From Blasia pusilla (taxonomy: Eukaryota): a stretch of 64,000 bases of DNA. The notes beneath the pieces are model-generated. The model was not told the DNA's origin, searched no databases, and worked only from the letters and a program-made list of their open reading frames with translations. Shown piece by piece: positions 3,101 to 60,770 of this stretch. The stretch is taken from the NCBI GenBank assembly GCA_050084515.1, contig CM114271.1, positions 7,750,001 to 7,814,000 of the forward strand, written 5' to 3'. Both the position numbers and the translations under genes were made by a program. Numbering within the stretch: the stretch's first letter is position 1; every line of letters begins with the position of its first letter.

Positions 3101-3406
3101 ATCACCAGATGATTTCTGGACGCTGTTCGAGTTAACTTCACTGGCTGTGGAATCTTCTTGTCCTGAAGGAAAAATATTGTCATCCCCCGTGGGTTCATCG
3201 GACTCAAAATGCTCATTGCTGCTATTACCCGACAGCGTGGCCCGAGGGCAACATAGTGAGAAGGAACGGGAGCATGTCTTGGAAATCCGAGGCAGACGAT
3301 TCCTTGTATGCACTACGGTTGCAGCAGCACGAGCGAGGCTGAGGCGCACAATTTGAGGGCAAGGAGATTTCGCGGGTATGAGAAGATTCCAGCACAGGAG
3401 AGCCAT
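146..3406 (-). CDS. Spliced host gene, uncharacterised protein with probable plastid transit peptide; 3' part lies off the left edge of the window
   Basis: Four phase-0 exons with GT-AG junctions join in frame: 3406-2567 (MALLCWN...GLGKPFQ), 2223-2065 (VAVEEFADTCMEAH...SIMNE), 477-424 (ESRVRSLWVRLVYSTLAQ), 241-146 (FEERQ...DAFVKE). The N-terminus is Arg/Ser/Ala-rich and lacks acidic residues, like a transit peptide. Confidence 0.75.
1432..1530 (-). mobile_element. Short 3'-end remnant of LINE family A in an intron
   Basis: TAGCCTTGCAACTATAGAC...GGACGGTGTTAGAGACTGGGATGG...GTACCATATGAGAG matches the LINE 3' end at 30781-30875. Confidence 0.65.
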
Positions 3407-3865
3407 TCTCCCCAGACCCGAGTATTCTCTTTCAACGAGAACAAATGGTCTAATCTGCTCCCGAATTCTCCAGTCTTACTCAAAGAGAAGAAGCTAGGGC
3501 AAGAACAACATCCCAAACTCCCATTTGTAAATTCTTGGCTGCCATGTGCACTTCTCTTCCATGCACTTGATCAACTCCAGTTCCTTCTAACGTAACGCAC
3601 TGCCAACAATCGACTATACCCAAAAGAAGTTCTCTGAAACTCTCGGCCATTGAACCTGGCTTGCTCTCAGTGTCCCGGGAACACGAGAATGTGGAAACCA
3701 AGGTGCATGGGACAAAAGCATGTCGATTGTTTCGTCGACGGACCGGTATCAGCACACGTGTGATCATTTCCCCACTTCGGGGCAGGAAAGGAAGTGAGGC
3801 GGCACTCAGGCCCGAAGCCCATAGTTCGTCCCGGAAAGGCATTCAGCCGGGTCGGGCCACGTTTC

Positions 3866-3975
3866 ATATAGACAATATAGATTTGGGATTATGACCATAT
3901 ACTAAATGGTTGTATAGTCAATATAGACAATATAGATTTGGGATTATGACCATATACTAAATGGTTGTATAGTCA
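3866..3975. repeat. Perfect 55-bp tandem duplication
   Basis: ATATAGACAATATAGATTTGGGATTATGACCATATACTAAATGGTTGTATAGTCA occurs at 3866-3920 and 3921-3975. Confidence 0.95.
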
Positions 3976-4799
3976 TGCAACTTTTGTTACCAAGATAATA
4001 TGATTGTAAATTCATTCGAGGATTTATTATTTTTCTCGAGGGATATAGGACATAATTGAAAAATGTAAATATGTGACTTAGAGTGATTGTACATGATGTA
4101 TGATGTATCATTGTGTCACTATTGTTGAGAACTTTTTGTCACAACCTTTACCTTCTGGATTTTTCTAGAAGGTAAGTTGAAGATGGACTTTCCACCTCAT
4201 GAAGACCGTAGTCCTTATGACAAGGAGGATGATGGATAAGGGGGATAACCACACAATTCACAAAGTAGGCCAAGGTCAATGAAAGTGAACAAGAAGACAA
4301 TCTTCTTGTTCGTCAAAAAAAATGAATTGACGGTGCACTTGGGCAATGCTTTCTAAAACTTAAAGTTCACCTAACATCCCTTTTTTTTCGAGAGAGAGCT
4401 TACTAAATTCCAGTTCGATTTTAAAAGCCCCAATCCTCTTCTACCACTCTCCTTGCAAAATCCCAATTGCACAATAAGCCACTCGAACCTTGAGTTCGTC
4501 AACTTTGCCTTAAGAATATCTTGATTGGTGTCGTTCTTCAAGTGCGACTTTAATTCATCTTCAATGATCAATACAAAGACCGTTTTCTTGTACAGCTTCG
4601 TTGATGTTGGCCAACTTGGCCAACGCTTCCTTAAGCTTAAAGTTGACCTTACTTCCTCTTCTACTCCGAGAGGTCTTCAAAATTTCCAAGTTCAATGAAA
4701 AAGGCCCAATCCTTCTTCCACTCATTTTCACTTGCTCGTATATATGCAGTAGTATACTCTTGGATTTTTTGATCAAACCGGTTCGAAGCTAATATTCAC

Positions 4800-5725
4800 T
4801 TTCAAATCCTATCCAAATAAGTCCATCTAACATTCGCGTAGGCATTCTCAACAACAAGGTTGTACATCACATCCTTAAAAAAATTCTCGACCATTCCTAT
4901 TGCAAAGATATCTATGGCTATGCTAAAAGGAACCTTATAGGCTCGGGTATCAAATCCGGTGCTACGAGCCCAACATGGGGCCACCATCTGAGAGGCAAGA
5001 CTAACCACTCATCATCCCATGACGCATTTCCCCGAACTCCAACCCCATGGTTGCACATAAACGGACAAGTCCGTCCTTGGGATGGACATGGATAGAAAAT
5101 TTTGGACATGGCAATGGACATGGATAGAAAAAAAAATGGGGGCCACACTTATCGTTCATGGTGGAAGGCAAATCAAGGGCGGGCGAGGCAATAAGGGGGG
5201 AGTGAGTGGAGGTGAGAGGAGGAAGGAATGAGAAAGTACAAATCATTTGCATGAAGGCAAGGAGGGATGAGAAAGAAGGGTCATATGGGGCCAATATGGA
5301 CAAGTCCTTCTATTGGATAGACGTAAGTCCATGGACATAGACATTTCCATGGACTTGGACTTTGTTGATGTGCAACCTTATCCAACCCCGATGTATGGCT
5401 CAAAGTTGGATTTAAAATGAATGAAAGTATTCCTTGCTTGAAGATCGCCATGAAAAACTTCATGGTTCTTGACAATTTTCAGGGTAACAAGCAAGGCAAC
5501 AACAACCTCAATGATATTTGATCCTAACCTGTGACATTTGATCTTCTGTAACTCTCCTAAACTTGCCCCTTTATTCTTCAAGGTATGGCATGCTTGCAAC
5601 TTATTTTCAAGGTGCCTACCATTCGTACATGGATAGATGGTACGCGGTGGATCCTCAACCCACCTTCCCAACACGAGAACTATTCCTCGATATAAAATAG
5701 CATCAAACATCTCCTCTCCCATCAT
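4800..5725 (-). pseudogene. Degenerate protein kinase pseudogene, interrupted by a MITE; may extend further both ways
   Basis: Kinase subdomains appear in order: GIVLVLG (IV), IYPCTNGRHL (V), HGDLQARN (catalytic loop), YIGVG-VRG (degenerate DWG/DFG, frame restored by removing the MITE), VAPDL (APE), SIAIDIFAIG (IX). Frameshifts are present. Confidence 0.6.
5046..5380. mobile_element. hAT-type MITE (335 bp)
   Basis: TIRs CATGGTTGCACAT ... ATGTGCAACCTTA are flanked by the 8-bp TSD TCCAACCC (5038-5045 and 5381-5388). Internal TGGACA subterminal repeats. Confidence 0.85.
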
Positions 5726-6459
5726 TTACTATCTTGAATACAACGGAGATGCATCCTTACACACCTTCATGCAATAGAGGATATCTTACTAAAGCCCATG
5801 GTTTGGTGTATTTTTCAGCAAGAGACGATTCTTGTCTTGAACCTCATAACCGAACGTGTGTCAATGCTAAACATCGGGAATCTAGTAGGCTCACACCACA
5901 CTATGATGGATGCGCATCAAAGAGGTCTATTGAAGGACACATGAGATGTGAGACATTGAGTAAGATTGAGTTTTTCATATGTTGGCAATCGCGACTCGGG
6001 AAAATCGTGACTAAGCGCAAACCCAAACTTGAGAGGATTCAAGTCTAAGAAGAGTGGATTGCCAAAGAGGATGAGAACCAGACTTGGAACTTTACTAACA
6101 TTTGGTGTTTGATTATGTTTAAGGTCATAATCACCAATAACAAGGTGCGTTTGGGATAAGTAAGGGGGCATTGGAAAGCTCACACAAAGATTGTTCCAAA
6201 TCACTAAAGATCTTGACGAATGCATGAGTAGAGACAGAGAAATTTTCTGAAATCTTTTAGAAGGATAGTTGGGTTGCCGGCAAAAATGCGTGGCCCGAAA
6301 GTAATTTCTCAGATGTAAGGGGAGGGCGGAGAACCTGAGAAGTATATGTAAGGGGAAAAATCTCTAAGGCTGCTTAGGACCTCTACTCCACTTTGGGGAT
6401 CCATGGGGCGAACCAAGGGTTGAGAATGGATCGGGAGGTTGAGGTTTGGGTGCAAACAC

Positions 6460-8522
6460 CAAGCCAAGTCAAAGTAAGTGGATCTCGAAGTACAGCTCGT
6501 ATGAGGGTGAGTGCTTGGCTGCGATGTGGGCTGTCGCGCATTTCAGGTGTTACTTATTTGGCAACCCCTTTACCATCATCACTGATCATCAACCACTAAA
6601 GTGGTTGATGGAGTCCGACAAGCTTACAGGGAAGCTTGCGAGATGGGCTCTGTTGTTGCACGAGTATGATTTTCAGGTGGTACATAGACCTGGAACGCTC
6701 AACCAGGATGCAGATGGGTTGAGTCGTAACCCATGCCCGAGTCAGCGAGATGCGACTGGAGCTCGATGGCATGGAGAGAGTGATGAGGAGTCGGTGCCAG
6801 GATGGGCACGCCAGCCTATTTAGGCATGTTGGCTATGGAGAGCCAGCAGTGGGGAGACTTCGAGGGCGAGTTCTAGTGGAGAGTCTTTGGATCCCGAGGC
6901 CAGTGAGGACACGACAAGTGGCCGAGATATTCATGATGATGGAGTAGTCTTAGAGTACCTTCGTACTGGCAGCCTTGCGAGCACCATGGATGCTAGAGAG
7001 CGGGATCGGATCCTACAACGGGCCAGACGGTTCCGTTGGGAGGGGACACATGTTTTGAGGGTTTGGGAGGATGGCAGAGTACGCGTAGTGCTGCATCCTT
7101 TGCAGAGAGCACGACTAGTGCAGCATGCCCACAAGGAGTTGGGTCACTTTGGGGTGAAGCGGACGTATAGCTTGCTCCATTCAGTATTGGTGGCGAGGCA
7201 TGCAGATCGCGTTCGGCAGATTTGTTGCCAGGTGCATGGTGTGTGATCGGGTCCGAGCATCGTTCAATGCTCCGACTCCACAGTTGCATCCATTACCGAT
7301 CATGGGCTTAGGGTATAGATGGAGTTTGGATTTTGCAGGACCTTTGCCCTTGACGGAGCGTCACAATCGTTATGTGTTGGTGATGGTCGAGCACTTCTCG
7401 AAGTGGATTGAGTTGGTTGCATTGCCTGACAAAGCAAGTGAGGGAGTAGCTTATGCCTTCCTTGACAGAGTGCTGAGTCATTATGGCGCACCAGCTAAGG
7501 TGTTGACAGACCAAGGTACCGAGTTTCGCGGTGAGTTCCAGGCCTTGTGTGATCAAGCGCTGATTGACCACCGCACAACTTCGCGAGATCATCCTGAGGC
7601 GGATGGATTAGCGGAGAGAGTTGTGCAGACGGTGAAGAGGGGTTTACGCAAGTTTGGCTTGCAGAGAGGTCACCTAGGAGATTGGGACCTCTAGTTGCCA
7701 TGGTTGGCGATGGGATACAGATTCAGCAGGCAGGCATCCTTAGCGTCTTTTTCACCGTACTTGCTACTTTATGGCGAGAGCCGATTTACCTCGGCCATTC
7801 GTCGAGATCTTTGGTGAGGTTGAACCTTGATGACCCAGATGTATGGGTGCGAGCATGTTCTCAGAGGGCTGAGTTATTTCGGAGAGTGATGTCCATGGCG
7901 TTCGAGAACTTGGCGATTGCACAGCATCGGGATACGTTGAGGTATGTGACTATTCGAGGTGGTGGTTATCGACCAACTATCCGGAGGTTTCATCAGGGAG
8001 ATTATGTCTATTTGCAGCAGACGGCACCGACGACGTTGGATGTGACTGTAGGGCGCACTATCCTGAGAGTGCGTGATATTTTGCCATCGGGTGTTCTCTT
8101 GCTGGAGGGACGCGATGGTATGGTATGGAAGGACCATGTGCGTAATTGTGCGCCATGTCACCTTCCTAACATTGATGGTACAGTAGATCCGAGCTTAGAA
8201 GTAGTTCCTGCAGGCTTGCGTTGTATGTTGTGTGGATCTGCCCGTGGTGCGGCCACGATGCTAGTCTGTCATGGGTGTTCGAGAGGATGGCATATGGCAT
8301 GTTTGACGCCACCTCTCACTAGGGTTCCTCAGGGACGATGGATGTGTCCCAGATGTACATAGAGAAGGTAGTTCTACATTCCGACTTGTGTCTATGACAT
8401 GGATGACAAGGAGGCGACTAACGATGAGGCCACATGAGCACCCGGCCTTCTTGCCCTTAGCGTCCCAGAGATGTATGTCATGGTAGGTAGGGATAGATGG
8501 CTATCTGGAGTTAGAGGGACCT
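6460..8522 (+). mobile_element. Ty3/gypsy pol 3' fragment: RNase H - integrase - C-terminal PHD finger, then start of 3' LTR (~8476)
   Basis: RNase H: YSSYEGECLA, TDHQPL, ARWALLL, NQDADGLSR. Integrase HHCC region: HKELGHFG...CMVC. Core: LDFAGP, TDQG, GLAERV. PHD C4HC3 at 8222-8356. Several frameshifts and stops. Confidence 0.92.
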
Positions 8523-9725
8523 TGTGATACCCACAATTTTGTAATCTTGAAGAATATATCTTTTTATTCAACGAAGACTCTTGTTTATTATGATTTTGAT
8601 TATTTATTATTATGAAGAAGAATAAGTGAATCACCAAGCTCCTAAGATAAGGCAAAGAGATGGAAGATCAAGGATTTGCCTTAGAGGAGAATCAAAAGCT
8701 GTAACAAAGTATAAAGGATCAACGCGAAGCTCAGCGAAGTTTAGCGAAGCTTAACAGAGACTAACGAAGCTCAACGAAGCTCTGTATACGAAGTACTTCG
8801 CTCTTGAACGAAGCACGAAGCACGAAGCACGAAGAACAAACACGAAGCAGAAAGAAGAATGAAGAACTTCGTCCTCCGGAAATTTAGCGCAGCGAAGCTC
8901 AGCATGATTGAGATTCGAACCGACACATAGTTTAAACAATTAGACTAGGAAAGGGCGCGACCCTTTGTATCAAATTGTTAGTTAGGACAGTTTTGTATCG
9001 CGGATTCATAGGGATCGTAGGAAAAGCTAAGAGAACCATAGATCTAGGTAGTTACAGATATTGAAGAGACACCAACTTCATCAAGAACGCTTCGGATTAT
9101 AGAAACGATCCTACTCTGGAGAATATTTAAGAAACAAGACATAAGGTATTATCATCATTCACTCATGAAGTCCTTATGCTGTAGGAATGGTCCGAGTAAG
9201 AGAGTTGTACCCTCTCGAGCTTGTAGATACTTTGAAGTCTTCCAATTCTTGATGGAGTAGTAAATCATTCATTCATTCATTCTGATGTGCGATGCTTATG
9301 TCTGAGTATTCTTTTTGGGTATGCCGAGTGAAGAGTGAATCAGGCGAACCTTTCTCGTCAATGGAATAATCAACATAAAGTTGTATGAAATCTGTTTGAC
9401 AGAGAGTAACCTGCTCCGACGGATTGAGTTCCGAAAGTAGGAGAAGCCAGCTTTATTCTTGAGATCTCTGTGAGGTTCCGAGATATCGAGAGAACAAATT
9501 GCCTGAGCGTACTTTAAACTCCACTCGAGAGAATTGAGAAAGAAAACATAGGTACTAAAAAGAATCGGAAGATGTTATTGGAATACTACATTTGAATTAC
9601 CTAATCAATTACACTTTTACAACATAATCATCACTTTATATTCTCTTTTCATCCAACAATGATCCTCTTGGGGATCGAACTCTACAATTGACTGTAAATA
9701 AGAAACACTTAGACATTACATATAG
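8523..9725 (+). mobile_element. Athila-like LTR (copy 1), inserted into the 3' LTR of the PHD gypsy; 3' end rearranged
   Basis: Starts TGTGATACCCACAATTTT. It is colinear with the reverse complement of 59478-60770, with shared blocks such as GATCAAGGATTTGCCTTAGAGGAG, GAAAGTAGGAGAAGCCA and ACATTACATATAG. Contains CGAAGCA repeats. Confidence 0.8.
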
Positions 9726-9772
9726 TCGAAGACTTTATGTAATGTCTAATATGAGCCGCCCCGGCGAACACT

Positions 9773-11480
9773 TCATGATGTATCTCCTATCTCCATAAAA
9801 GTGTCGTCTAAACTATCAAATTCAAGGGTAGGCACACAACGGCCGTGAATCGTAGAAGGTTTGTTGATAATGTTAGGGGTACGATTGCGCATTCTTTCTC
9901 GCGACTTGTTAACAACTAAGTGACTCCCTAGGACTTCATTCTGGACTAAGACATCAGATGGAGTGAATGCTGGCAATTCTTCAAGAGTAAGTGAAAGAGT
10001 GGGTACTACTTCTGGAAGAGACTTGGTATGATTGTCGAATTGGCGCTTCCAATGTTTGTTGATGTAGTCGATTTCCTCGTTCATCTGCTCTTCGAAGTTC
10101 TTGCGAAGCGTGGTCTTCGTGCAGCTCTTTGACATCTTCCGGGTCCATCTGGGCTTCGCTGAGTAGCTTCTGGTCTGCCTCCAAGACTGCGATTCTCCCG
10201 GTAGCCTCCGCCCACTGCGCCAGTAAGTCTTTGTTCGCTTCTTGATGTTCTTGAAGCAACTTCGAAGATTCAGCATGTTGGATCGACAACTTCTTGAATT
10301 CGGTGTGAACCCGCCGTGTTTGATGTTGATGCTTGTCAATGAGGTGCGAAGCTTCCTTGATCTGTGAAACAAACTGATCCGCCCCACATTCGAGGTTAAT
10401 CGCCAAACTTTCCCATTGGCGTGCGTTCCGTGCTTCGTACTGACACTGGACCAAGTCGCATTGAGCTTTGCGAAGCGTGGTCTTCGTGTCTTCGAGTTCT
10501 TGATTCCGTAATTGCAGATTCATTTATGCTACTCGACGCTGTACTTCATGGTCTGACGAAGCTTGGGCTCTGCAGTTGAGGTCGTGCAGGCCTTCTAAAT
10601 AATCGTGCACGGATGCCATATCCTCGAGGTGAAGAACCCGCTGGAGTTGGTTCATGACAGGAACTGCCAATTGCAAGAACCATATCATGTCGTCTGCCGT
10701 CTGCGACATGAGGCGAAGTGCAGGTTGATGATCGCTTGCCCGCGGGTCTCGCCGTAATCCTCCCGCATGATGATTGTTGGGTCCGGGGTGTTTCAAAATT
10801 GACCCGGCCTCGCTTTGGCCGAGGCATTTCGTTGGTATCTTCGTCTTTCTTCAAAGCCGAAGTATGAGGATGTTGCTGAGGTGCTTCGGAGGGTGGGGTG
10901 ACTTCGCGACTATCCATGGTTCTAGTTGCGCCCTTCCGTGGTAGTCGGACGGGGGTCACTTGCGACCAATCTAACGCCTCCTCTGCGGTTAAATCCTGCT
11001 TGTGAATATAAAGATGGATCAAGAAAGGAGATAGGAAGGACTTCGTGCTTGGATGAAGCACTTCCACCATTCCTCGTACGTGACCGTCCACAAAAGCAGC
11101 AAAGTCGACTCCTGGGGCTTTGGGGTCAAGGTGCTGGTTCCAGATGATGTAGCACATCTTCAAGAGCTTGTCCGTCAGATAGTAAGAACGAGCGGGATAA
11201 AACAGGGTCATCAGATGTTTGCAAAATTGACCAAAGACGAGCGGAGAGAGTGACGAAGCCTTGTAGCCGTTCCTGCCCAGGCGCTCAGACGTGACACAGC
11301 CGAGTGCTTAAAGATCTTCATGTTTTACTAGCAACTCCTTGTCATACTCGTACTCTGGCGCAGCCGGGAGCAGACAAGTTGCTCTCCTGTCGTCCGCCGT
11401 CCAGTGTTGGGGCTGAGCTCGATACCAAAGACTCTTCTTTCAAAACTTGGCGACAGCAGACGTAAAGCGAAGCTCTCCCA
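9773..11480 (-). mobile_element. Degenerate accessory ORF of LTR-retrotransposon type, with C-terminal coiled coil
   Basis: Broken reading frame RAQPQHWT...GRNGYK...LFYP...SFLSPFLIHLY followed by a heptad-rich Q/E/K/L region (9981-10523). Resembles extra ORFs of bryophyte gypsy elements (from recollection, not searched). Confidence 0.5.
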
Positions 11481-12179
11481 GGAGTTCATTCTTCTTCCTG
11501 CTTCGTGCTTCTTGGCCATGCACATCCTTCTTGGCGGGCATGACAGTGGCAGATGCATACTCCCCATGCGACATCTCCACTAGTCCTGCTCCGACCAAGT
11601 CTTGGCTCCTACTCAATCGAGCCCTCTCCATATCATCACTGTAGGGTCGTCGGAAGATCGGCATATCACTCGACAACTCAATGCGGATCCCGGTCCCTTG
11701 AGCGCACCCAAATCCTCTATGCTAAACGCAAAGCAGATCCTATAACTACTGAGGAACCGATGTATTCGGCGCCGCTCTCCTCTGTCAACTTAGGGCCCAT
11801 ATCGGCTCCCAAGTCTCCATTGTGACTACGGTAGGACTCTCCGCGGGTATCGGTGGTTGCTATGGTGCAACCCCGTCTCGAACAACAACACACTGCCGCT
11901 CTCCTGTGACCAGCGCAAACTCGATCTCCTCCACGTGTAAAGGTCGAAACCACGCCGATCTTTGTGGCTATCATCTCCTTGTGAACCTTCAAAACATCCC
12001 AAGAAGTCAAGGGTGTCTCTCCCGATCTCCCTGGTGCGTAGATCTCCTCGGGTCTCTCGCCCGCCCACGCCTCCACCGTCTCGGTAGGCATGGGGCTCAC
12101 CAACGCAACCGGCCGTGATCATCCACGATCTCATACGACGCTTTCGCCCACTCCCAAGCCGAGGATCCATGTCAGCGAT

Positions 12180-13075
12180 TCAGTCCATCGCTGACCCAAG
12201 ACATGGCGTCGTGATGCCTCGACTCGATGGTACGCTCTTTACTCCGTGGAAATCCCATCGCCGCTCTCTCTCGTCGGGCGTTGGGCTCCACCAACCGCTG
12301 AACCTGGTCATCCCAAACCAGCGAGGACCGGCCTCCTTGTATGCATAGGAAGCGGAAAACTCACAACGTGGGCAAGGCGCCCGCGCCTGCCTACCCTATT
12401 GACCCCGCGACCGGTGGTCGATCATCGTGCCTCACCGCTGTGATCGGCGACCTGGATCCGAATGGAATCCACTAACAAAGGGGAGGGGCGCTCCACTCTC
12501 GCATACGCCCTCCATAACACCGCATGGGACACCAAGTTGGTCCACCATAGACGCGGGCGATGGGCTCTAGAACCTACACTTGCCGCATCCAAGAACACTG
12601 CTGGGCCGATCCAGCACGCACTGATGAGCACTCGTCACGACCCGTGACACGAGTCTCTAAGATCGGCACATTCTCCGAATGTAGGTGGAGAACAAGACCG
12701 GTGCTCCTGCATTGCCGTAAGACCCTCAACATCTCCCAAAACAACCTGGACCGAAAGTGTCACCAACCCGCCGCCTCGCTCAAAGACTCGATTGGCCTTG
12801 ACATGGCCAACCGGAAATGTCCAAATCAATGGTCCCTACCCGCTCTAAGTCTTGCGCCCCCAACAAGTAGGGAACTCTGGTACCCTTGTACTGCGGACAC
12901 AGAGAATAATGTCGGGAAAACGTAGGCGTAATTGCGCCACATGTCGTAGTGAGACGCGCCTCGCAACATCATCACTCTCCACATACAAGTACTGCTCTAC
13001 TCGCACTCTTGCCTGCAAAACAGCAGCTAACCCGATGTTAATCCCTCCAAAGAGATCTAACACTCGAATACCCTC
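12180..13075 (-). pseudogene. DNMT3-like C5 cytosine DNA methyltransferase domain within the gypsy polyprotein (frameshifted in this copy)
   Basis: Ordered motifs: I IRVLDLFGGI; II YVESD; IV DLDISGWPCQG (12827-12795); LFWEMLRVL; VI ENVP (12675-12664); VIII LDAASVGSRAHRPRLWWTNL; IX/X EPNA-RERAMGFP and ASRRHVLGQ-MD. Confidence 0.9.
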
Positions 13076-14928
13076 CTCCGGGGTACACCACCCAATGGGT
13101 GTAGTATCCAAGGGTGTCATCGTAGCACTCCCCGCTACCTTGGGTTCCTCAGACCTGTCACGCTTTGGTGCAAATGCCTCGCTCCACGCCGTCTGCTCGT
13201 GCGCATTTGCCAATCGTTGAAGCTCCTCAGTCGAGCCTCACAGCGGCACCTCTCCTCCATGGAATGATGCAGCTACCATAACACTCCTCTCCATAGAAAT
13301 GTCAGGAACGGGAGTATCCTCTGCATGGACATGTCCCTCAATCAAATCACTAGGCCAAGTGATGGCACTGCTAAATGCTGCTAAGGTCGCCATCTCTCCT
13401 GGCCGTTGCTCGATCACTGCACCTGTGAATCGAACGGGTAATGAGCTAAGGCGCCCATCACCCAACTGCCATCCTAGTCTGTAGGGCGCTGACTCCTCCC
13501 AGTAATCCAGGGAAAACCCCATCGGGTATAACACTGCTCCACCAACCAAGACGTCGTAGGACTCATCATCAGTCACTATCGTCTTGGCGCGCACCACGGA
13601 CTCATCTGTAGGATATCCCGGGCGAATCCTCACCACGACCTCCTGTCGGGTGATATACTGTGTGGTACTTGCTCCACCCAAGGATGTCTGTATCCGAAAT
13701 GGACAACACTCCACATCGGCTCTCGTCAAGCCCCAATCCTCTGAATGACGCTTTCCCCAACATCAAGGGTTGCGCTCCTGAATCCAACAAGACACGCTGC
13801 GGACTAAAAGCTCTACCTCCAGGACTCACCAACTGGAAGACCTGTCCTCGATAATCCAGCAACACAACACCAGGAGAAGCCATGGCACGCTCTATCGCGG
13901 GTCTAGCGGGCATATCCGCCATCCTAGCGACATGCACTGCCATGAATCCGCGTGGGACGGCCCAAGCATCCGCTCCAAGGGCAGGTCCATCACCTCCTCT
14001 ACAATCACCTCTGAACGTGATGCAGGAACACCATCTTCGCGCTCACATAGTGAAGCGGCCAGCCAAAAAGCCTCGGCGGGCGTACCTCCCAACGTCACAA
14101 CATCGGAAGCAAAAAATAAAGGAGTGCGGTACACGACGGTGGCCGCCCCCAACAACGTGCTCGACACATGCCCCTCCTGAGCATCAACAATAGGAGTCGT
14201 CGCACTCGCTTCTTCCATCGCCCTCCGTGCTTGCACACCAACAACATTACCAACTCTCCAGGAACTTTGATGAGGACCCATCGATGGGGTCCTCATCGCT
14301 TCGGACAACGTGAAAGATTGAGGAAGCCTAGTCTATCTACTGGCTTCCCCTCGCTGTGGATCCAACTCTGCGGCTGCTCCACGCGTCACAATTGCGGCGG
14401 CCTTCATCTGGGCAACCCCGCACATCCATCCAGGATCCTCTAGATCTCTGGCTGCTCCATATGATGTCGATGCCACGGATCCGGCATCAGGTAACCTCAA
14501 TGCCATAGCGACAACCTCCTCCTGTAGCTGTTGTATCTGAGCAGCCATCCCAGCCTCACGTCTGGCATCTCCCTCGGCGCGTCTAGGTAATGGTACTCTA
14601 CCTCCTCCACGGGCAACTCCACCACCCTGTCGGGAAACTCCAGCTCCTCGTCCCCCAACGGGACCACCTGGAGCACGATCTCTAGAAGGCCCACCCGGAC
14701 CGGCTACTCGCTCTGGGGCCCTCTCTGGCCCTTGGTCCAGCCGTAACTCAGGATGTAAACTAAAGCACCTGGCGCGTGTATGACCATACCTCTGACAATA
14801 GTCACACTGATAACCTCCTGGTGCAGCACCATCTCCTCCTCCATGCGGAGGCACACGTCCATGACCCTGACGTCGCGTTGATGATGGGCTCCACCACATG
14901 ACCAACAAGTAATAGTAGGCGGTTGCTG

Positions 14929-15879
14929 CTAAGCCGCATATGAAGGCGCAGGCCTCTGTGGCACGGCCTCTCGGTATCCTCCCTGAGCTCGTGGTGCCAC
15001 AGTCAACCTATCTCGGATTCCACGTTGCTGCACAGGTGGTGCAGACAATCGTGACTGCTCTCGCCCTGAACCCATGGTGGCTACGCTCTCCTCCGCCATG
15101 TTGCGCTCAATGTTCTCGGCGGTCCTAAAAACATCTCTCAACGTAGGGGAGGTGTTCATAAGAAGCACCCCCTCCCGCACCCGTGTTCGCAGGGTCCGGT
15201 CCAGCATCGCATACCATGACTGGATAGCCTGAGCCTCTGTCACCCCCTGAGTGACGTTGATCAACCGGCGCAAGCGAGTGTAAGCCTCACGCAAACTCTC
15301 ACCCGAGCGCCTCTGGAAGTCATGGATGCTCCGCAACTTCCCCGTCCGTACCTCCTGGTAGCTCGCCCTCAACTCAGCAAAGAACTCAACCACAGGGTTG
15401 AACCTGGGACAATCCCGACTAGACGGTGCAACTGCTCCCGTGCGAGTGACCCCTCCTAAAACATCACTAGTGGAAGAGGCAGTAGCCTCCCCTGACTCCT
15501 CCTCCTCATCTGGGAATGGCTCCGTCCATGACACATAATGTGGGTCATAGTAGAGCCTCCACGCCTCGATCTCACATGCATATCTCTGAGAGAACTCATG
15601 GTAATCGTCCGTGGGCACCCCCTCTAAATGCTGGAACATACCGTTCCATGTTGTAAACGGGTTGAACTCTCTAGAGTTCTTGGCCCGCTGGGAGTCGCAC
15701 CAAGTCCTAAACTCTACTATAAAATCGTGCAACTCAATCGTGCCTACAGCACCTAAAAACCTACGCGGTCCTCTACCCCGGTCGTCCATCTCGTACACCC
15801 AACATGTAGGACCACTCATAATGTGTGGCGATGTGCTCACAAACTCCTCTACACCCTCTCCCTCGTCTGACGATGACAC
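14929..15879 (-). CDS. Retrotransposon gag-like ORF
   Basis: 316-aa ORF with a retrotransposon gag major-homology-like motif Q-x3-ESLREAYTRL. The zinc knuckle follows after a frameshift. Confidence 0.8.
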   Translation of the reverse strand: MSSSDEGEGVEEFVSTSPHIMSGPTCWVYEMDDRGRGPRRFLGAVGTIELHDFIVEFRTWCDSQRAKNSREFNPFTTWNGMFQHLEGVPTDDYHEFSQRYACEIEAWRLYYDPHYVSWTEPFPDEEEESGEATASSTSDVLGGVTRTGAVAPSSRDCPRFNPVVEFFAELRASYQEVRTGKLRSIHDFQRRSGESLREAYTRLRRLINVTQGVTEAQAIQSWYAMLDRTLRTRVREGVLLMNTSPTLRDVFRTAENIERNMAEESVATMGSGREQSRLSAPPVQQRGIRDRLTVAPRAQGGYREAVPQRPAPSYAA

Positions 15880-16928
15880 AGAAGGAGCTTGAGGTGGTCC
15901 CTCACGTGGAGACCCTCGAAACCTCGCGCCACTCCGCGTAAAACCTCTAGAGCTACTCTCGGGTTCACCACCTCGCCTCTCAAAGTCCCGAACAAACTCC
16001 GTGATGACCCTCGTGCCCCTCTCACCCGATCACTCTGAACCTCGTGAGGAATCCCTCAATCACTCATCCCAAACATGCGGCACTCGATCTACACTCTCTC
16101 TCCCCGAGACGTGTAATGTGCGGCAACACGCGGCGTGGTGAGGCAAATCGACCAGGCTATCATCTCATCGACAACCTACCCTCAACTCGGAACATCCCAC
16201 ACAAGTCTATGTCCGCTAAACCACATACATAAATGATGCTCTGAGCATCCACACACCCAATATCCCCAAATAAATCCCAGAATCCCTCACACGTGCAGGG
16301 TAAAGGACCAGAATGGGTAACCTGAACACATGTCGATGTCGCTCCTCAAAGAATCGCAAATCTCGACCCCAACTCGATCGTGGAGACAACTCCTCCAATC
16401 AGCAAGTCATACTCCTCCCGTACTGATGCTCCTCAAAACTCCTCGATAGACAGTGCGGTCCCAGCGGAACGGTGCGACGTTGCAGGCGGCACGCAACGGC
16501 TACGAACGGCACGACCCTCGATGGTGGGATGCGGCACTCGGCGGCATACCCTCCTCAATCAATAATAATCCCACACTCTGCTCCACAATGACGGTGCGGC
16601 TCCGCGATCGAGATGGTGCGGTGCGGACACGAGCGGCACGGCGCGGCAATCGGCGGCGCGTTGCGGCTACGGGCGTCACGGCACGATACTCGATCGTCGT
16701 CGAGCGGCTGCCAATCACAACATAGCAGCATGAAATCAAAACTCAAACACCATAACCGGAGGTCATCTGCCTTCACTGGTTGATGAAGAAACTGCGATGA
16801 CGGTGGCGGCCAAAACAAAGTACGTGCTGGCGACGCAAGTCAAGGAATCAACGAACGTCATGGAAGACCCTCCACTCCGTAATGGCGGCAATGGCACCCA
16901 AAGGGTGGACAATGGACGGTGGACCCTT

Positions 16929-17048
16929 GACAGTGACGGTTGACCGCTGATGGTGACGGTTGACTGATGACGGTGACGGTTGACCGTCGACGGTGATAGT
17001 TGACCGTTGATTGTGACGGTTGACCGTTGACAGTGACGGTTGACCGTC
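16929..17048. repeat. Six tandem 20-bp repeats in the LTR/leader of the DNMT gypsy
   Basis: Consensus GAYDGTGACGGTTGACCGTY, starting at 16929, 16949, 16969, 16989, 17009 and 17029. Confidence 0.9.
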
Positions 17049-18169
17049 GACCGATGGCGGTAACTATGATGGCGACGGCCGCCGCCGGTGTGGCGGCTGA
17101 TTTAGGGTTTGCACGATTTAACCCTAAAAATCGCCTAGCAATGGTAGCTTTACAAGATTGCCCATAACTTGTTGCTCGCATCTCCAAATTGTGCATTGTT
17201 TGTTGCACAGCGTGCAGATCTTCACGATCTACGCTACCATGAAAAAATATTTAGAATCGAACATTTCAGTAAAAACTGACGGAGATTGTCGTAAAGCCCA
17301 ATGTCTCTTTCTCCTACACAAAATTCGGCAGCGCTCCCGCGCTGATTTCTCCGAACGAAAATGTAACATCTGTAAAAATACATATCAGCAAGCTACATGG
17401 TGCTCCCGAGAGCACCAGCATGGAGCAATCCGTCCCCATACTCAATCCCTATCAGAAATTGGGCAGTGCTTCCGCGCGCCACTCTTCCACACGAAAAATC
17501 GGCAAATGCAAAGAGTAATGAAAGCAGCCCTTGCTCCGGTGAGCACTCCCATGAGCCGCTGAACGGGGAACACGGTCCCCAACCTACAAAAACAGCGAGT
17601 GACCAGCGAGCTCCCCCATGAAGCTCTCTCACTCTCTTATTCTCTCTTTGTAAAGTAAGATCCAATCTCTCTCTCCACCATCTCACACCATAGCTCTCAA
17701 AGGTGTGCACTCTCTCTCATGTCAAACCAAACCCACTCTCCTAATGAGAGGCTTGGGTTACACTCACAGGGCAAGGTACCATAGCTCCGCCGCCTCATGC
17801 CAAGAGGTTCAACAAAGAGAGAATGAGCTCTCAAGTTCTCTCTCCTTGAGGTATACCCCTCTCCTCTCCCAAGCTCTCTCCATGGTAACCTATTCTCCCA
17901 AGTCACCTCCTTGGCTCTTGACCTGATGAAGGAGGTCAAGGGCCACTTACCAAAAATATTAAGTCGATCATATACTCAAAATGGTACTTACCTAAAATAG
18001 TAAGTTCCTCAATATGGCTCCAAATGAGCCAAAACGAAGGGGAAACCTGCTATCTCAGGTTTCCAAGGGCTCAGCACGTCACCCTCGACCTACAGGGCGT
18101 GTCCTCCACTACTCATGAAGGCGCTCTATTAGATCCCACCGATCTATCCCAAAAGACGTGACATCTATG

Positions 18170-20140
18170 TCCAAATGATGGACGTGATGAAGGTCAAGCA
18201 AATGATCCAGCAAAGAAGTGGATTGTCGAGCTAGAATGGGATAGAGCTCTCGGTTCTAACAATAAAATTTGCAAGAAAACACTTCCATTGCCATTCACAA
18301 AAATGGGGAAATCTCAAAAGGTTAAGGAGTTCCTCACGGTGTTCCATAGACGTTGGAGCTATACTTCGAGGGGCAAAACATTAAGGAGCAAGATAAGATT
18401 ATTGTGGAAATCGCATTGCAAAAGAATAATGTGCTCATGTGGCGAAAAAAATTATCAAGAGGAACAACTATCTAGTGGATTATCTTTGATTTGGGAGGAG
18501 TTCAAGGTGTTGATTAGCGATCCATTCACTCTAGAATACCAAGATTTCCTAGATGGAGTGGAGTTTGTGTGTTTGAGGTAGAGTGGGTCTCAAAGCCCTA
18601 ATGTGAGAAATTAGTGCAAATTTGAACTCATTGCCTAAGATGGATGAGTTCGCAAAGAAGGTCATATTCTTAAGCCGAGTATGGAGAAGGCCCTCTTTCA
18701 AAGGCCGCAGTTACGAAAGATGTGCAGAGAACTCGTGAAACTAGAGCAGCGGATAGGAAATGATTAGTTCCAAGTACAAAAACCGTTCGAGCTTTTAGAT
18801 TTTTTGAAGGTACAGAAGACCAAAGGGCCATTCAAGAGGCTCAATAGTGAGGGTGAGTATGAACAAGAAGAGTCTCTTACCCTTGCAGCAAAACAAGTGG
18901 AGTTCAATGCGAAGCCTAAAGAGGCCGAATATCCAAAGTAAGGGAGGGCAAAAGTGACTTGGTCCAATCCGGGTTGGCTTTTTTGGAGGCCAATCTTACC
19001 TGACCTCAAAGTTATTTTTGGTGTCCATTTTTGGATGAGGAGTATTCCAAGTGAAGGAGAAATTCACCATATGCGATATGGATGAGATTGTAGCAGTCTT
19101 GGGAAGATATTCTTGGCTGCCTATGCGTTGGAGCTAAATCAAAGACCATTACGGTTGAGAGTCTTATTGAAAGGCGAGCGGTTGCAGCAAAGATTGGTTT
19201 GTGAGGTTCATATGAAGAAGGAGTTGATGAACATCATTACAAGGGCAAGTAAGACCGAGATGGAAGATGGGTTTAACTGCTTGATGAGACAACTAGAGGC
19301 TACAAGTGAAACACGCAAAGATCATTCCTCAACTTTGAGGGAAATCGGAGAAGAACGCATAAGCGTAGTAAAGGAATTGGATCATTTCTTAACAACGGAT
19401 CTTCCGACGAAATGGCCACCAGATAGGGCATTCAATCATAAGATTCAGGTGCTAAGAACGTCTCAACCGCCGTCAAAGGCGCCATGTAGACTCAATCATA
19501 AAGAACTTGTTGAGTTGAAAAACAAAATAGTTGACCTCTTAGAAAGGGATAACATTCAAACTACCAAGTCACATGATGGGCACCCGTTCTTCTTATGAAG
19601 AAGAAGGATAGGAAGTTGAGACTATGTGTTGATAACCAGGCACTAAAAAAATGGGTAGTGAGGAATAATTACCCTCATTCCTAGATCGATGATATCTTTG
19701 ATAAACTTTCAAGGACTAGGCCCCTAGGTATTTCACAGGAATGGACTTAAAGTTAAGATATTACCATATTCGGAGAAAGAAAGTTGATGTGCAGAAGATC
19801 ATGGATAGAACGAGACATGGCATGTTCGTGTTTGTAGTGATGCTCTTTGGTTTGGGTAACGCGCATATTAAGTTTATACCACATTTATGAACTCCAGATT
19901 TCATAAGGAGATAAATGAGTATGTTATCATATACATTTATGACCTTTTGATATATTCGCAGTCATAAGAGGGGCACGCTTGATATTTAAGGGCGATATTG
20001 TCAAAACTTAAGGCAAACAAGTTGTACATAAATCTGGAAATGAGCAAATTTGGGTTGAGCAAGATAAAATTTTGGGATCCTGTGGTTGATATAGATGGAG
20101 TTAGTCATTATATGGATAAAGGAAAAGCGATTTCTAGGTA
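18170..20140 (+). mobile_element. Highly degenerate Ty3/gypsy gag-pol remnant
   Basis: PPDRAFNHKI...PPSKAPCRL...ELKNKIVDLL, LRLCVD, IDDIFDKL, MDLK-RYYHIR and IIYIYDLLIYS (decayed YIDD). Many stops. Confidence 0.8.
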
Positions 20141-58419: not shown

Positions 58420-59220
58420 CCACTGCTGAAAAATTTTACCCTAGACAAGGTGGCCACGCGAAAAGATGACAATGAGGCAGTGGCCAATTTTTATAGGAAA
58501 TGATCATCACTCGGTATGGCTTCCCATTGGAATTAGTAAGTGATCGTGGCACTCACTTCTTGAACAAGACTATTGAGTCTTTAACTTCCCACTTCTTAAT
58601 CAAGCATCGGAAGAGCACGCCGTACAACCCTACAGCCAGTGGGTTAACCGAAAAATCTAACGGACTGAATAGCCGGATACTAAATCGCTTGACGGTTACA
58701 TATTCCAATGATTGGGACGTGAAAATCTCAACGGAATTATGGGCCTACCGAACAACAAAGAAGGTTACTACCAAGTATACCTCCATCTATCTTACTTATA
58801 GAGTTCAACCTTTGACCCCTATTGAATGGGATTTGCCCACTTATCGCGTATTGGAGGGAAATAGAATGGAGGATGCCACATGAATTCTCCAGGCAAGAAA
58901 TGAGACCTTAGTAGTCTTGGAGGAAGCACGGGTCTTATCTCTATGCCAGACCAAACGCGTACAAGACGAACGGAAGGAACGATACGATCGACATCTACGG
59001 CCATAATCTATAAGCATCGGGGACCTGGTGTTGTTGTATGATAACCGCCGACTGAAGTTCCCCGGGAAGCTATAATTAAAGTGGTGGGATCCTACCGAGT
59101 GATCGCGATATATGATAATGGATCACTGCACTTGGAAAACTTGACCGTAGAAGCATTACCCACTCATGTCAATGGCATGCATGTTCGAAGATATCATGAG
59201 ATGCAACCATACCCTAACTA
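58420..59220 (+). mobile_element. Ty3/gypsy (non-chromovirus-like) integrase 3' fragment nested in the copia RNase H
   Basis: IITRYGFPLELVSDRGTHF, STPYNPTASGLTEKSN, LWAYRT, KFPGKL and HVNGMHVRRY. Confidence 0.88.
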
Positions 59221-59454: not shown

Positions 59455-60770
59455 CCCCGGCAGCGGCGCCAAAAATTTGTAGCTATATGTAATGTACAAG
59501 AAGTATAAGAATTGATCTTTTTATAGTAATTTAATGAGTTCAATCCCCAAAAGGTCCACAATTATGTGAAAAGAGAGTTCAAGATGGCATTTATCTTGCA
59601 ATGGTTGTAGTTAAGTGTGTACAATTCGAATTCAATCACTTATCAGTGTATTCTTCTCTCCCTTAGTACCAAGATTTCTTTCCTTGATTCTCTTTAGTGG
59701 AATTGAATTCACGCTCTGGTAAATCTTCACTCAACATCAAAGAACCTCACAGAGACCTCAAGAAGAAGTTGGCTTCTCCTACTTTCGAAACTCAATCCGT
59801 CTAGGCATGCTACTCTCTGTCAAACATATTTCTTACTTATCAATGTTGATTATTCTCATGATGAAAGGGTTCTCCCGATTCACTCTTTACTCTCCAGACC
59901 CAAAAAGCATTCTCAGACATATGCATCGCATATCAAAATGAAGAAATGAGTGTTTTACTACTCCATCAAGAATGAGAAAGATTCAAAGTGTATACAAGCT
60001 TGAGAGGGTACTACTCCCTTGCTCGGACCATTCCTACAACATAAGGACTTTGCGAAAGAATGATGATGATAGCTACTTTCATGCTTCTTAAATATCTTCG
60101 GAATCAGTAGTTGGTCCAAAGATCTGAAGTGTCTCTTACGAATCTAGTGTCTATTGAGAGTTTGTAACTACCTTGATCTAAGATTCTCTTATCTTTTCCT
60201 ATGATCATTATGTATCCGCTCGGCGTAACTGTCCTAACTTCTTATCCGGTCCAAAAAGTTGCGCCTATTCCTAGTCTAACTGTTCTAACAGTGTGCTGCT
60301 TGAAATCACTTCAAGTCTTAGCTTCGCTTGGCTGCAAAGTCTAGACTTCTTCTTCTTCCCTTGAGGACGAAGCTCTTTCTAAGGACGAAGTGCTGCATTC
60401 TTCGCTCTTGTTCCATGTGCTTCGCTTAAGAGCGAAGTACTTCTCCCTCTTCTTCTTCATCGTGCTTCGTTCAAGAGCAAAGCACTTCATAAACAAGTTC
60501 TTAATAAGGCTTCCTTGTGTTTTCCAAGCTTCGCTCTTAGTCTTTAGACTTTGTTACCATATTTCCCTCTCCTCTAAGGCAAATCCTTGATCTTTCATCT
60601 CTTTGCCTTGTCCTAGGAGCTTCGTGATCCATTTCAATATTACTCATTCTCCCAATACATAAATATAATATATGAAACAGTCTTGTATATACAACCTTTA
60701 CTTCATAGAGTCTTCATTCCTTGAATCAAAATGTATACATCTCTAATAGTACAAAATTGTGGGTATCACA
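59455..60770 (-). mobile_element. Athila-like LTR (copy 2, 60770-59478) with primer-binding site (59471-59455)
   Basis: The minus strand reads TGTGATACCC...AGCTACA, then AATTTT, then TGGCGCCGCTGCCGGGG, an Athila-type PBS. Homologous to 8523-9725. Confidence 0.85.

Follow-up and report, generated by a model that had tools for sequence, protein, structure and literature searches.

The decayed methyltransferase domain and the element around it

The window, by which we mean the whole 64-kb stretch of DNA that was analysed, carries on its minus strand, at 13075-12180, what is very probably the decayed DNMT3-type domain of a dead, truncated Ty3/gypsy copy belonging to the streptophyte "Gypsy-DNMT3" lineage. 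The assignment of 12180..13075 to a C5 cytosine methyltransferase (DNMT) draws on motifs and on homology to unbroken relatives. A motif search found seven C5-methyltransferase motifs in canonical order between 13063 and 12191, distributed over three reading frames: motif I, VLDLFGGI (13063-13040, frame index 2); motif II, YVESD (12985-12971, frame index 2); motif IV, GWPCQG (12812-12795, frame index 1); motif VI, SENVP (12678-12664, frame index 0); motif VIII, SRAHRPRLWWTNL (12571-12533, frame index 2); motif IX, ERAAMGFP (12270-12247, frame index 0); and motif X, RRHVLGQ (12211-12191, frame index 2). A preliminary description of this DNA had named these motifs, all of which were located on the one strand and in the order it gave. 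It had also placed the domain between a protease and the start of RT, and the protease active-site motif LLDSGAQP (13790-13767) and the RT start MPIFRRPY (11664-11641) do flank it. Its suggestion that frameshifts hide the domain from the ORF track is correct as well, the motifs being split among five separate stop-to-stop ORFs.

Frameshift-aware alignment to the unbroken Marchantia protein P0006 revealed 11 frame breaks in the DNMT domain (near 12919, 12876, 12787, 12648, 12620, 12436, 12404, 12351, 12322, 12276 and 12224) and one in-frame stop (12762-12760). Motifs I, IV, VI and VIII are kept, and frame breaks interrupt motifs IX and X. None of the five stop-to-stop DNMT pieces, which are short (61-130 aa), matched PF00145 in Pfam at E values up to 0.1, and a phmmer search of the PDB with two of the pieces returned nothing significant (E about 1); what identifies the domain is therefore its similarity to relatives that are unbroken. 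This homology is extensive and far beyond chance. Searching the window with unbroken relatives by tblastn gave E values of 1e-89 (P0002), 4e-100 (P0003) and 4e-126 (P0007), and 625 of 1210 codons between 15774 and 11954 match P0006 in the frameshift-aware alignment. The Pfam check proposed in the preliminary description thus failed for the window's own pieces but succeeded for their unbroken relatives, where PF00145 scored 32-51 bits, the cut-off being 22, in P0002-P0004, P0006, P0009, P0024, P0036, L001, L005 and L019, and was also above cut-off in P0031.

Upstream of the DNMT domain on the same strand, alignment to P0006 and the places of motifs define the Gag region of ORF1 (14333..15774), with two CCHC zinc knuckles, CWSCGG (14907-14890) and CDYCQRYGH (14806-14780). 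This region is lightly damaged, with stops at 14931-14929 and 14335-14333 and a single frame break near 14807, and its Pfam match to Retrotrans_gag is weak (E 0.03). The aspartic protease region (13240..14134, minus strand) was delimited by its active-site motif, tblastn and alignment to P0006; its frame is broken near 13932 and again near 13733, with a stop at 13240-13238. Its pieces gave no protease match in Pfam; relatives P0003, P0024, P0009 and L019 match Asp_protease_2 and gag-asp_proteas. Sequence upstream of gag (16030..16800, minus strand), on the leader or LTR side, resembles the coding part in its high copy number and its transcription. The true 5' terminus of the element was not located; GC skew suggests a position of about 18100. 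No LTR pair was found in the window, where self-comparison of 3000-20000 for LTRs and inverted repeats gave none belonging to the element, and no TSD or PBS was found there for the element.

Downstream of the DNMT domain, an N-terminal remnant of ORF2 (RT) at 11497..11847 on the minus strand matches residues about 9-128 of P0204/P0207. The copy breaks off from the family at about 11515, and the RT catalytic core is absent. RNase H, integrase and a C-terminal PHD finger of the same family lie about 3 kb away on the opposite strand (6384..8359, plus strand; Pfam rve, Integrase_H2C2 and PHD; alignment to P0204), in a fragment with 432 of 647 codons identical to P0204 residues 377-1028, three frame breaks and two stops. 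The domain order PR-RT-RNase H-integrase is therefore present in the window only as pieces, and the Gag-PR-DNMT and RH-INT-PHD fragments may have inserted independently of each other instead of stemming from a single element that was rearranged. The spacer between them (8360..11496) lies outside the family as judged by read depth, RNA and Pfam; 8527-9970 is other repeated DNA, and 9971-11414 has low depth, zero RNA reads and two ORFs of no known family. For one spacer ORF (10546-11307), the ESM Atlas returned no score above 0.84 and nothing usable. Low depth and lack of RNA led to rejection of the spacer ORFs (9773-11307) as a captured replacement for RT.

With a DNMT broken in 12 places, the RT core gone and RH-INT-PHD inverted 3 kb off, the window copy can carry out none of the steps that have been proposed for such an element. 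It is a dead, truncated relic without function, cut off inside RT at about 11,500. The identity and anatomy of the element as given above can be held with high confidence.

The frame breaks themselves might be indel errors made in assembling a high-copy repeat, in which case the true DNMT of the window would be intact. The ratio of lesions is consistent with such errors: the window's PR-DNMT part has 16 frame breaks versus 2 stops, whereas in the 34 metagenome relatives frame breaks number 0-3 and stops 0-11. Several of the indels lie in short homopolymers, the copy lacks CpG depletion, and the majority of RNA reads disagree with the window at five listed indel places of the minus-strand fragment (11781-13731). 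However, at the same five places, between 4 of 36 and 30 of 63 Illumina RNA reads of run X21 have no indel, and the corresponding share of DNA contig depth runs from 15% (12007, run X4) to 90% (11781, run X1). The presence of the window's indel states in both reads and contigs indicates that these states exist in real molecules, in a check that covers 12 of 214 indel rows. Moreover, an unbroken ORF of 1348 aa was assembled elsewhere in the window, and the truncation of RT is independent of the indels: at 11515, 96 and 87 RNA reads end loosely, with onward sequence unlike the window, so the copy is dead either way. Assembly error is thus an improbable explanation of the broken DNMT.

A family of unbroken relatives with a DNMT3-like catalytic domain

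Relatives of the element occur in two named land plants, Marchantia polymorpha and Calypogeia fissa, in Klebsormidium, and in many other contigs; the best 150 matches of a HMMER search all belong to the element family. DNMT takes up one constant position, in the reading frame of the protease, in P0002-P0004, P0006-P0029 and P0036, and it holds that position in 25 metagenome loci that span both the end of DNMT and the start of RT. The order PR-RT-RNase H-integrase was seen in P0024, P0036, L019 and L005. The preliminary description is supported in taking the window to hold a Ty3/gypsy-type element whose DNMT3-type catalytic domain lies between protease and RT, and the Marchantia and Calypogeia members uphold its placement of the element in land plants. 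Among 49 family members, catalytic residues are strongly conserved: the C of PC in 47 of 49, the E of ENV in 49 of 49 and both R of RxR in 49 of 49. In DNMT trees, which contain no cellular plant DNMT3, the window groups with Marchantia, Calypogeia, P0003 and P0004 in one clade, with SH-aLRT support of 100 in a 50-row tree (in which the Klebsormidium branch is unresolved) and 99 in a 48-row tree that includes metagenome loci. Two loci carry direct repeats 8.7 kb apart with TG..CA ends, of 307 nt and 94% identity in L001 and of 342 nt and 92% identity in L031. No matching TSD and no recognisable PBS were seen with these repeats, the flanks of L031 having been checked by eye for a 5-nt duplication and a PBS.

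The characterised proteins nearest to the unbroken relatives, as distinct from the window itself, are animal DNMT3A, DNMT3B and DNMT3C, as judged by sequence and by predicted fold. A phmmer search of the PDB with P0006 returned DNMT3A/B/C for all 25 of the best distinct sequences (E 1.7e-8 to 2.3e-5), followed by HaeIII (1e-3) and tobacco DRM (2.6e-3), with DRM2 at 0.3. In the AlphaFold model of P0003, pLDDT exceeds 90 across the DNMT part, and among the Foldseek matches listed for it (32, at ranks 1-49 with gaps) all are DNMT3A/B/C, with E values down to 2.5e-18 and TM scores normalised to the target of 0.75-0.83 for isolated catalytic-domain chains. The element domain shares with the animal enzymes the motif order I-X, the RxR-WxNL motif VIII, the PC motif IV and the ENV motif VI. 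It differs in being only about 21-24% identical, in being fused to Gag and protease, and in lacking PWWP and ADD: neither reader domain was found by Pfam in ORF1 of P0006, P0009 or L019, which matched only PF00145 and protease families. On this sequence evidence, the likeness to DNMT3 is confined to the catalytic domain. DRM, a DNMT3-related plant C5 methyltransferase, is circularly permuted, whereas the element domain is canonical in order and matches DRM much more weakly.

In the apparent source species, copies of the family are very numerous, and their transcripts, most of which come from copies other than the window's, are strongly biased to one strand. A total of 180,308 contigs of run X1 align to the window. 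RNA reads cover both fragments, with a strand bias that reverses with fragment orientation; runs X21 and X22 carry the same species label, and the sense call assumes the usual dUTP library convention. Reads at least 99% like the window numbered 31 of 4688 in X21 and 42 of 4510 in X22.

Comparison of family members points to purifying selection on DNMT, which is the most conserved segment of ORF1 in 11 of 11 protein pairs. For L019 and L020, dN/dS of DNMT was 0.18 (dS 0.26) versus 0.12 for the protease, and it was 0.11-0.19 in five more distant, saturated pairs; pairs containing the window are saturated for dN/dS. Medians over all pairs (DNMT 0.56, PR 0.63, linker 0.67) discriminate little, owing to the mixing of neutral decay in dead copies with selection.

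Purifying selection would also be expected had a liverwort Gag-PR-DNMT been exapted as a host gene of which the window holds a pseudogene. That ORF1 ends directly after DNMT agrees with such domestication, and Marchantia annotates ORFs of this type as genes (models Mp_4g09160 and Mp_6g11220). However, the source species has a very large number of copies, many copies are decayed, L001 and L031 are flanked by direct terminal repeats, L005, L018 and L019 continue in the same frame with an ORF2 (RT-RH-INT-PHD), and the Marchantia proteins P0007 and P0008 continue into RT. Domestication is therefore very unlikely. Finally, that part of a host DNMT3 gene was inserted by chance into a single copy of a family otherwise without the domain, a reading that the window alone (one copy, no LTRs) could not exclude and in favour of which nothing was found, can be dismissed: the other members do not lack the domain, its recurrence at one position in dozens of proteins and 25 metagenome loci refutes a one-off capture, RNA and DNA depth over DNMT in the source species is similar to that over the gag and PR parts, and the host MpDNMT3b of Marchantia is, according to a preprint (10.1101/2021.02.12.428880), a different gene, Mp5g09290.

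Two ORFs and a candidate leaky stop

The preliminary description took the methyltransferase to be an internal domain of one polyprotein. In the window's clade it is instead the C-terminal domain of ORF1: in unbroken relatives, ORF1 encodes Gag-protease-DNMT and ORF2 encodes RT-RNase H-integrase-PHD in the same frame, and the two are divided by one conserved stop followed by CAA-CCN (or CAA-TCA, CAG-TTA). In L019, an ORF1 of 1369 aa and an ORF2 of 1047 aa lie in one frame with a single TAG between them; L018 and L005 are similar, and the frame is open on both sides of the stop in all three. Comparison with relatives identifies TAG CAA CCA at the DNMT-RT junction of the window (11862-11854, minus strand) as the homologue of the stop that ends ORF1.

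This context resembles the type I leaky stop of tobamoviruses, UAG-CAR-YYA (Firth and Brierley 2012, PMC3542737). Of 26 sources compared, 24, among them the window, carry a stop plus CAR-YYN at the equivalent position, although many of the loci are near-copies of each other and represent only about five independent lineages. Five of the 26 sources have the exact CAR-YYA, as CAA-CCA (window and L005), CAA-TCA (L018) or CAG-TTA (L019 and L020). The family differs from tobamoviruses in being a retrotransposon rather than an RNA virus and in the details of the context: CAA-CCC, which departs from the exact consensus, is found in 19 of 24, and the stop codon is TAA in 8 of 24. Taken together, the sequence comparisons make it reasonably probable that the conserved stop is a functional leaky stop.

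Relation to known elements and possible role

A DNMT-carrying retrotransposon was already known from a streptophyte alga, as stated in the preliminary description. KnitGypsy-Dnmt3 of Klebsormidium nitens was published by de Mendoza et al. (2018, PMC5890265), and its lineage is called streptophyte "Gypsy-DNMT3" in a preprint (10.64898/2026.05.21.726589). De Mendoza et al. placed the Klebsormidium elements in the DNMT3 clade and reported purifying selection on their DNMT, which appears in both cases; the Klebsormidium DNMT had no detectable activity in yeast, a result described as inconclusive (PMC5890265). The Klebsormidium DNMT is homologous to that of the window's family (KFL_009030040, P0036, versus P0003: E 3.6e-52, 47% identity). 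Both are gypsy elements in which a non-permuted domain of DNMT3 type separates protease from RT, the PR-DNMT-RT order of KFL_009030040 is the same, and the integrase regions are homologous. There are also clear differences. The named hosts of the window's clade are liverworts, and P0036 is continuous whereas the window's clade has an in-frame stop between DNMT and RT. According to Pfam, integrase is followed by a PHD finger in the window and its relatives but not in the partial P0036, and DIRS-like repeats are described for KnitGypsy-Dnmt3 (PMC5890265) where L001 and L031 have plain direct terminal repeats.

A second published case, SymbioDIRS-Dnmt3 of dinoflagellates, likewise has a DNMT3-type domain in a retrotransposon polyprotein, and de novo CG methylation was shown for it in yeast; de Mendoza et al. 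regard its acquisition as independent (PMC5890265). Unlike the Ty3/gypsy family of the window, SymbioDIRS is of the DIRS class, with a tyrosine recombinase. Reader domains on retrotransposon integrases are known from chromoviruses, and PHD-bearing elements are cited in PMC6673714. The window's family resembles chromoviruses in having a chromatin-reader domain at the integrase C-terminus, but this is a PHD finger rather than a chromodomain. The kind of element is thus known from Klebsormidium, and its membership in land plants is new in so far as we found no report: literature searches covering papers outside their supplements (where PMC5890265 and PMC12344493 might give liverwort DNMT3 copies) returned no gypsy-DNMT3 for land plants, liverworts or Marchantia. 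Nor did these searches of the literature outside supplements bring up a functional description in land plants, in agreement with the preliminary description. The ORF1-terminal arrangement of DNMT and the liverwort host range appear to be undescribed.

A role for the domain can be sketched by analogy. With a leaky stop, Gag-PR-DNMT would be the abundant product and the complete fusion a rare one. The protease would free the methyltransferase, which could add de novo methylation to cDNA that the element has just made or to its recent insertions; de novo self-methylation was proposed for the algal elements by de Mendoza et al. (PMC5890265). The PHD finger of the integrase could read histone tails and so steer integration. 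Self-methylation of cDNA or insertions is a possible but doubtful role, less probable than the leaky stop. The preliminary description also supposed that the enzyme is packaged, which would be a further hypothetical step. The window copy has a CpG observed/expected ratio of 0.84, and its DNMT part 0.98, whereas a neighbouring LINE and gene have 0.37-0.38; this absence of CpG depletion does not favour long-term CG self-methylation of the window copy.

That retrotransposons bear a host silencing-type enzyme is a puzzle, its role being unproven, and the published cases (Symbiodinium and Klebsormidium) are in hosts that are hard to manipulate. We tentatively propose that liverworts, including Marchantia, harbour a high-copy, transcribed gypsy lineage in which DNMT ends ORF1 before a tobamovirus-like leaky stop and would, like Gag, outnumber RT and integrase. 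Spread in trans may continue in a subfamily whose DNMT is broken; if so, the enzyme would not be needed in cis. Family transcripts are abundant in the window's apparent species, and Marchantia polymorpha, which is haploid and transformable and has well-studied methylation pathways, carries apparently unbroken Gag-PR-DNMT genes. The position of DNMT before the candidate leaky stop leads to a testable prediction of dosage, namely that DNMT would be made like Gag and not like RT.

The DNMT domain of the window copy

The window was proposed in the preliminary description to hold a Ty3/gypsy retrotransposon with its own DNMT3-like methyltransferase between protease (PR) and reverse transcriptase (RT). 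All of the C5-methyltransferase motifs named there were found in canonical order on the minus strand: I (VLDLFGGI, 13063-13040), II (YVESD, 12985-12971), IV (GWPCQG, 12812-12795), VI (SENVP, 12678-12664), VIII (SRAHRPRLWWTNL, 12571-12533), IX (ERAAMGFP, 12270-12247) and X (RRHVLGQ, 12211-12191). They are flanked upstream by the protease motif LLDSGAQP (13790-13767, minus strand) and downstream by the RT start MPIFRRPY (11664-11641, minus strand). The domain is indeed split by frameshifts, with its motifs lying in three frames and five separate stop-to-stop ORFs, and the motif frames by themselves require at least five frame changes. A frameshift-aware protein-versus-DNA alignment to the Marchantia protein P0006 matched 625 of 1210 codons over 15774-11954, with few lesions in the gag part; it placed 11 frame breaks and one stop in the DNMT part, where break positions are approximate and breaks may be over-called at high similarity.

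Each piece of the window DNMT is, by itself, too short for profile searches. Pfam matched none of the five, and phmmer searches of the PDB with two of them reached E values of about 1. A 130-aa piece (12845-13237) matched five proteins at 50-56% identity, including one from the liverwort Calypogeia fissa that carries the methyltransferase family PF00145. Using the DNMT part of the relative P0003 as the query matched 47 long proteins. Among these were three gene models of Marchantia polymorpha (Mp_4g09160, Mp_6g11220 and MARPO_0084s0073), Klebsormidium nitens KFL_009030040 and one Cymbomonas protein. The Pfam check for PF00145 was passed by unbroken relatives (over cut-off in P0002-4, P0006, P0009, P0024, P0031 and P0036), and tblastn of unbroken relatives against the window gave E values of 1e-89 to 4e-126. 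These relatives settle the identity of the window DNMT. The family is large: an exhaustive HMMER search with P0003 matched 4102 cluster representatives at E ≤0.001, with 970 reaching 1e-10 and 280 reaching 1e-30; long polyproteins are frequent among the matches.

Likeness to DNMT3 was judged on the unbroken relatives P0006 and P0003 rather than on the window itself. All 25 of the best distinct PDB sequences matched by P0006 with phmmer were DNMT3A, 3B or 3C (E 1.7e-8 to 2.3e-5), followed by HaeIII (1e-3), tobacco DRM (2.6e-3), and DNMT2 and HhaI (0.02-0.1). P0003 was modelled with AlphaFold from a 34-row alignment; the model has a mean pLDDT of 79.7, and almost all of residues 340-680 exceed 90. 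Foldseek matched this model to DNMT3A/B/C in 32 of the 32 matches listed (ranks 1-49; best E 2.5e-18), with target-normalised TM values of 0.75-0.83 for isolated DNMT3 catalytic domains. Motif order is permuted in DRM, but not in the element DNMT. Neither PWWP nor ADD was found by Pfam in ORF1 (Gag-PR-DNMT) of the relatives, and the DNMT3-like part of ORF1 is the catalytic domain only. The DNMT trees contain element-family rows and no cellular plant DNMT3; placement within DNMT3 draws on the phmmer and Foldseek comparisons, together with the account of Klebsormidium elements in the main text of de Mendoza et al. (PMC5890265).

A 50-row DNMT tree, which leaves out the short fragments P0001, P0005 and P0052, groups the window with Marchantia, Calypogeia, P0003 and P0004 (SH-aLRT 100). 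The sister group consists of 15 Gag-PR-DNMT ORF1s, and the Klebsormidium branch lacks a resolved placement. In a 48-row tree that includes metagenome loci, the base of a 34-row clade (SH-aLRT 99) consists of several unresolved lines, of which the window is one. The best DNMT identity of the window is 61%, to P0004, and its end branch is long (0.55-0.74), which fits a decaying copy. The window ORF encoding integrase (INT) and a PHD finger is closest to one JGI protein and to Marchantia Mp_7g09570 (67% identity each). The Mp_7g09570 gene model (P0202) combines the end of a protease and a broken DNMT with the end of an integrase and a PHD finger, and represents either an element copy with an internal deletion or a spliced-over model.

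Family layout and a candidate leaky stop

Three domain layouts were observed among 52 related proteins. The first, PR-DNMT-RT-RH-INT(-PHD), where RH is RNase H, is exemplified by P0024 and Klebsormidium P0036. The second, RT-RH-DNMT-INT-PHD, comprises 18 proteins plus that of Cymbomonas in one clade (SH-aLRT 98). In the third, Gag-PR-DNMT, the protein ends about 100-170 aa past the DNMT. The nature of this last layout was revealed by a metagenome contig scan (80 loci). At locus L019, an ORF1 of 1369 aa (protease, PF00145) and an ORF2 of 1047 aa (RVT_1, RNase H, integrase, PHD) lie in the same frame and are separated by one TAG; the arrangement at L018 and L005 is the same.

The DNMT end and the RT start occur together in 26 sources (25 loci and the window). 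In 24, a stop followed by CAR-YYN lies at the homologous place: TAG in 16 and TAA in 8, in the contexts CAA-CCC (19), CAA-CCA (2), CAA-TCA (1) and CAG-TTA (2). The exceptions are L021 (TAG-TAG-CCA) and L072 (no stop). Because many loci are near-copies, these sources sample about five independent lineages. The window's homologue is TAG CAA CCA at 11862-11854 (minus strand), and the in-frame stop of relatives lies at L005:4509, L018:4661 and L019:5083. The methyltransferase had been described as a domain inside one polyprotein; instead, in these 24 sources it ends ORF1, with an in-frame stop before RT. In its context the stop is similar to the leaky type I stop of tobamoviruses, UAG-CAR-YYA, which is reported to be functional in plants (PMC3542737), and this likeness suggests that the element stop may be read through.

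Direct terminal repeats with TG..CA ends, 8.7 kb apart, were found in L001 (307 nt) and L031 (342 nt); neither a target duplication match nor a primer-binding site was seen at these repeats. Separately, some proteins with the RH-DNMT-INT-PHD layout (among them P0030, P0031 and P0039) are extended at the C-terminus by about 350 aa past the PHD finger. In this extension, DPWAG-like and SPWF/PP-like motifs, found by eye, recall a second methyltransferase; Pfam at E ≤0.001 matched no family there.

Truncation and transcription of the window copy

The ORF2-type proteins (RT-RH-INT-PHD) P0204 and P0207 match the minus strand at residues about 9-128 only (11847-11497). Residues 377-1028 match the plus strand at 6384-8359, with 432 of 647 codons identical, three frame breaks and two stops, and Pfam found rve, Integrase_H2C2 and PHD on plus-strand ORFs. 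By these alignments the RT core is missing; 3.1 kb of other DNA separates the fragments, and no LTR pair was found in the window. The window therefore holds two truncated family pieces in convergent orientation, which may derive from a single rearranged element or from two insertions. RNA reads that continue unlike the window (96 and 87) mark the truncation point at 11515; by eye, their continuations resemble the RT of Marchantia P0007 and P0008. The window copy is a relic. RNA reads that join 11783 and 6487 on opposite strands, with 31 letters on the shorter side (9 in run X21, 11 in run X22), suggest that a family derivative lacking RT is transcribed. Neither Pfam nor the ESM Atlas gave a family for two ORFs of 248 and 253 aa at 9773-11307 (minus strand), a region of low read depth that lacks RNA reads.

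Raw reads from two RNA runs and contigs from two DNA runs, all of the apparent source species, were mapped to 6000-16800 at 85% likeness, giving 180,308 contigs from DNA run X1 and 25,038 from X4. DNA depth is very high at 6361-9970 and 11415-16800 and low at 10332-11414. The first RNA mate lies mostly on the plus strand over 11415-16800 (depth 74.3 versus 9.4 at 13220-13580, X21) and mostly on the minus strand over 6361-8526 (167.1 versus 16.3 at 7444-7804); under the usual convention, the RNA is sense to each fragment. Since few reads are at least 99% like the window (31 of 4688 in X21, 42 of 4510 in X22), the RNA comes mostly from other copies. Among the 12 indel places listed of 214, five lie in the minus-strand fragment (11781, 12007, 12276, 12319 and 13731). 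There, RNA reads are mostly one letter off the window. A sizeable share of reads and contigs lack the indel; three of the five are within 3 nt of mapped frame breaks. C>T and G>A account for about half of base-difference places (836 of 1714 in X21).

Selection, decay and relation to published elements

The DNMT is the most conserved ORF1 segment in 11 of 11 protein pairs. Within the liverwort-type clade, identity is 69-77% for DNMT, 55-72% for protease and 31-48% for linkers, zinc-knuckle stretch and tail. dN/dS was computed for pairs of relatives only. The sole unsaturated open-frame pair, L019-L020, gave 0.18 for DNMT (dS 0.26) and 0.12 for protease; saturated pairs gave DNMT values of 0.12 (L018-L019), 0.11 (L018-L020), 0.18 (L001-L005), 0.13 (L005-L013) and 0.19 (L005-L011). 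Close pairs of dead copies gave 0.38-0.55, and medians over all pairs at dS 0.05-1.5 (DNMT 0.56, PR 0.63, linker 0.67) hardly discriminate.

The window has 16 frame breaks and 2 stops in PR-DNMT, versus 0-3 breaks and 0-11 stops in 34 metagenome relatives. Its CpG observed/expected ratio is 0.84 (0.98 in the DNMT part), and the copy is not CpG-depleted; values elsewhere are 0.28 in L005 and 0.60 in L001, 0.38 in an unbroken 1348-aa ORF at 39383-43429 (plus strand) that ends in a domain of DUF789, a plant family, and 0.37 in LINE-like ORFs at 31836-35699 (minus strand; RVT_1 and weak zf-RVT matches). The modes of decay differ, by frame breaks with CpGs kept at 11497-16029 and by stops in the CpG-poorer L001-L034. 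Speculatively, a subfamily whose DNMT is broken may still be spreading, helped in trans.

Other repeats in the window include an inverted pair at 8932-9558 and 59663-60288 (630-nt repeat, 78% identity) from a different family that is high-copy in the DNA runs, a 20-nt tandem array (GACGGTTGACCG-like) at 16915-17074 upstream of gag, and a 55-nt perfect tandem duplication at 3866-3975. A weak integrase-like match at 58497-58820 (plus strand; 27% to P0024 and P0036) is likely to be a relic of a different gypsy element.

The element type is already published for a streptophyte alga: the main text of de Mendoza et al. 2018 (PMC5890265) describes KnitGypsy-Dnmt3 in Klebsormidium, with conserved catalytic residues, Ka/Ks <0.2 and an inconclusive yeast assay, and proposes self-methylation of cDNA. 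That main text makes no mention of Marchantia or liverworts. DNMT3 in retrotransposons of "streptophytes" is noted in PMC12344493 and in preprint 10.64898/2026.05.21.726589, liverworts not being named in the portions consulted, and no description of such an element for Marchantia or a liverwort was found in main texts. The host gene studied in Marchantia, MpDNMT3b (Mp5g09290), is a gene distinct from the element gene models. The core of the proposal, namely that a gypsy element of a land-plant lineage carries a DNMT3-type domain of its own, is supported. A DNMT that precedes a conserved candidate leaky stop is possibly a new feature. The function proposed for the element DNMT is an inference; the practical value of the find is that a model liverwort makes it open to test.
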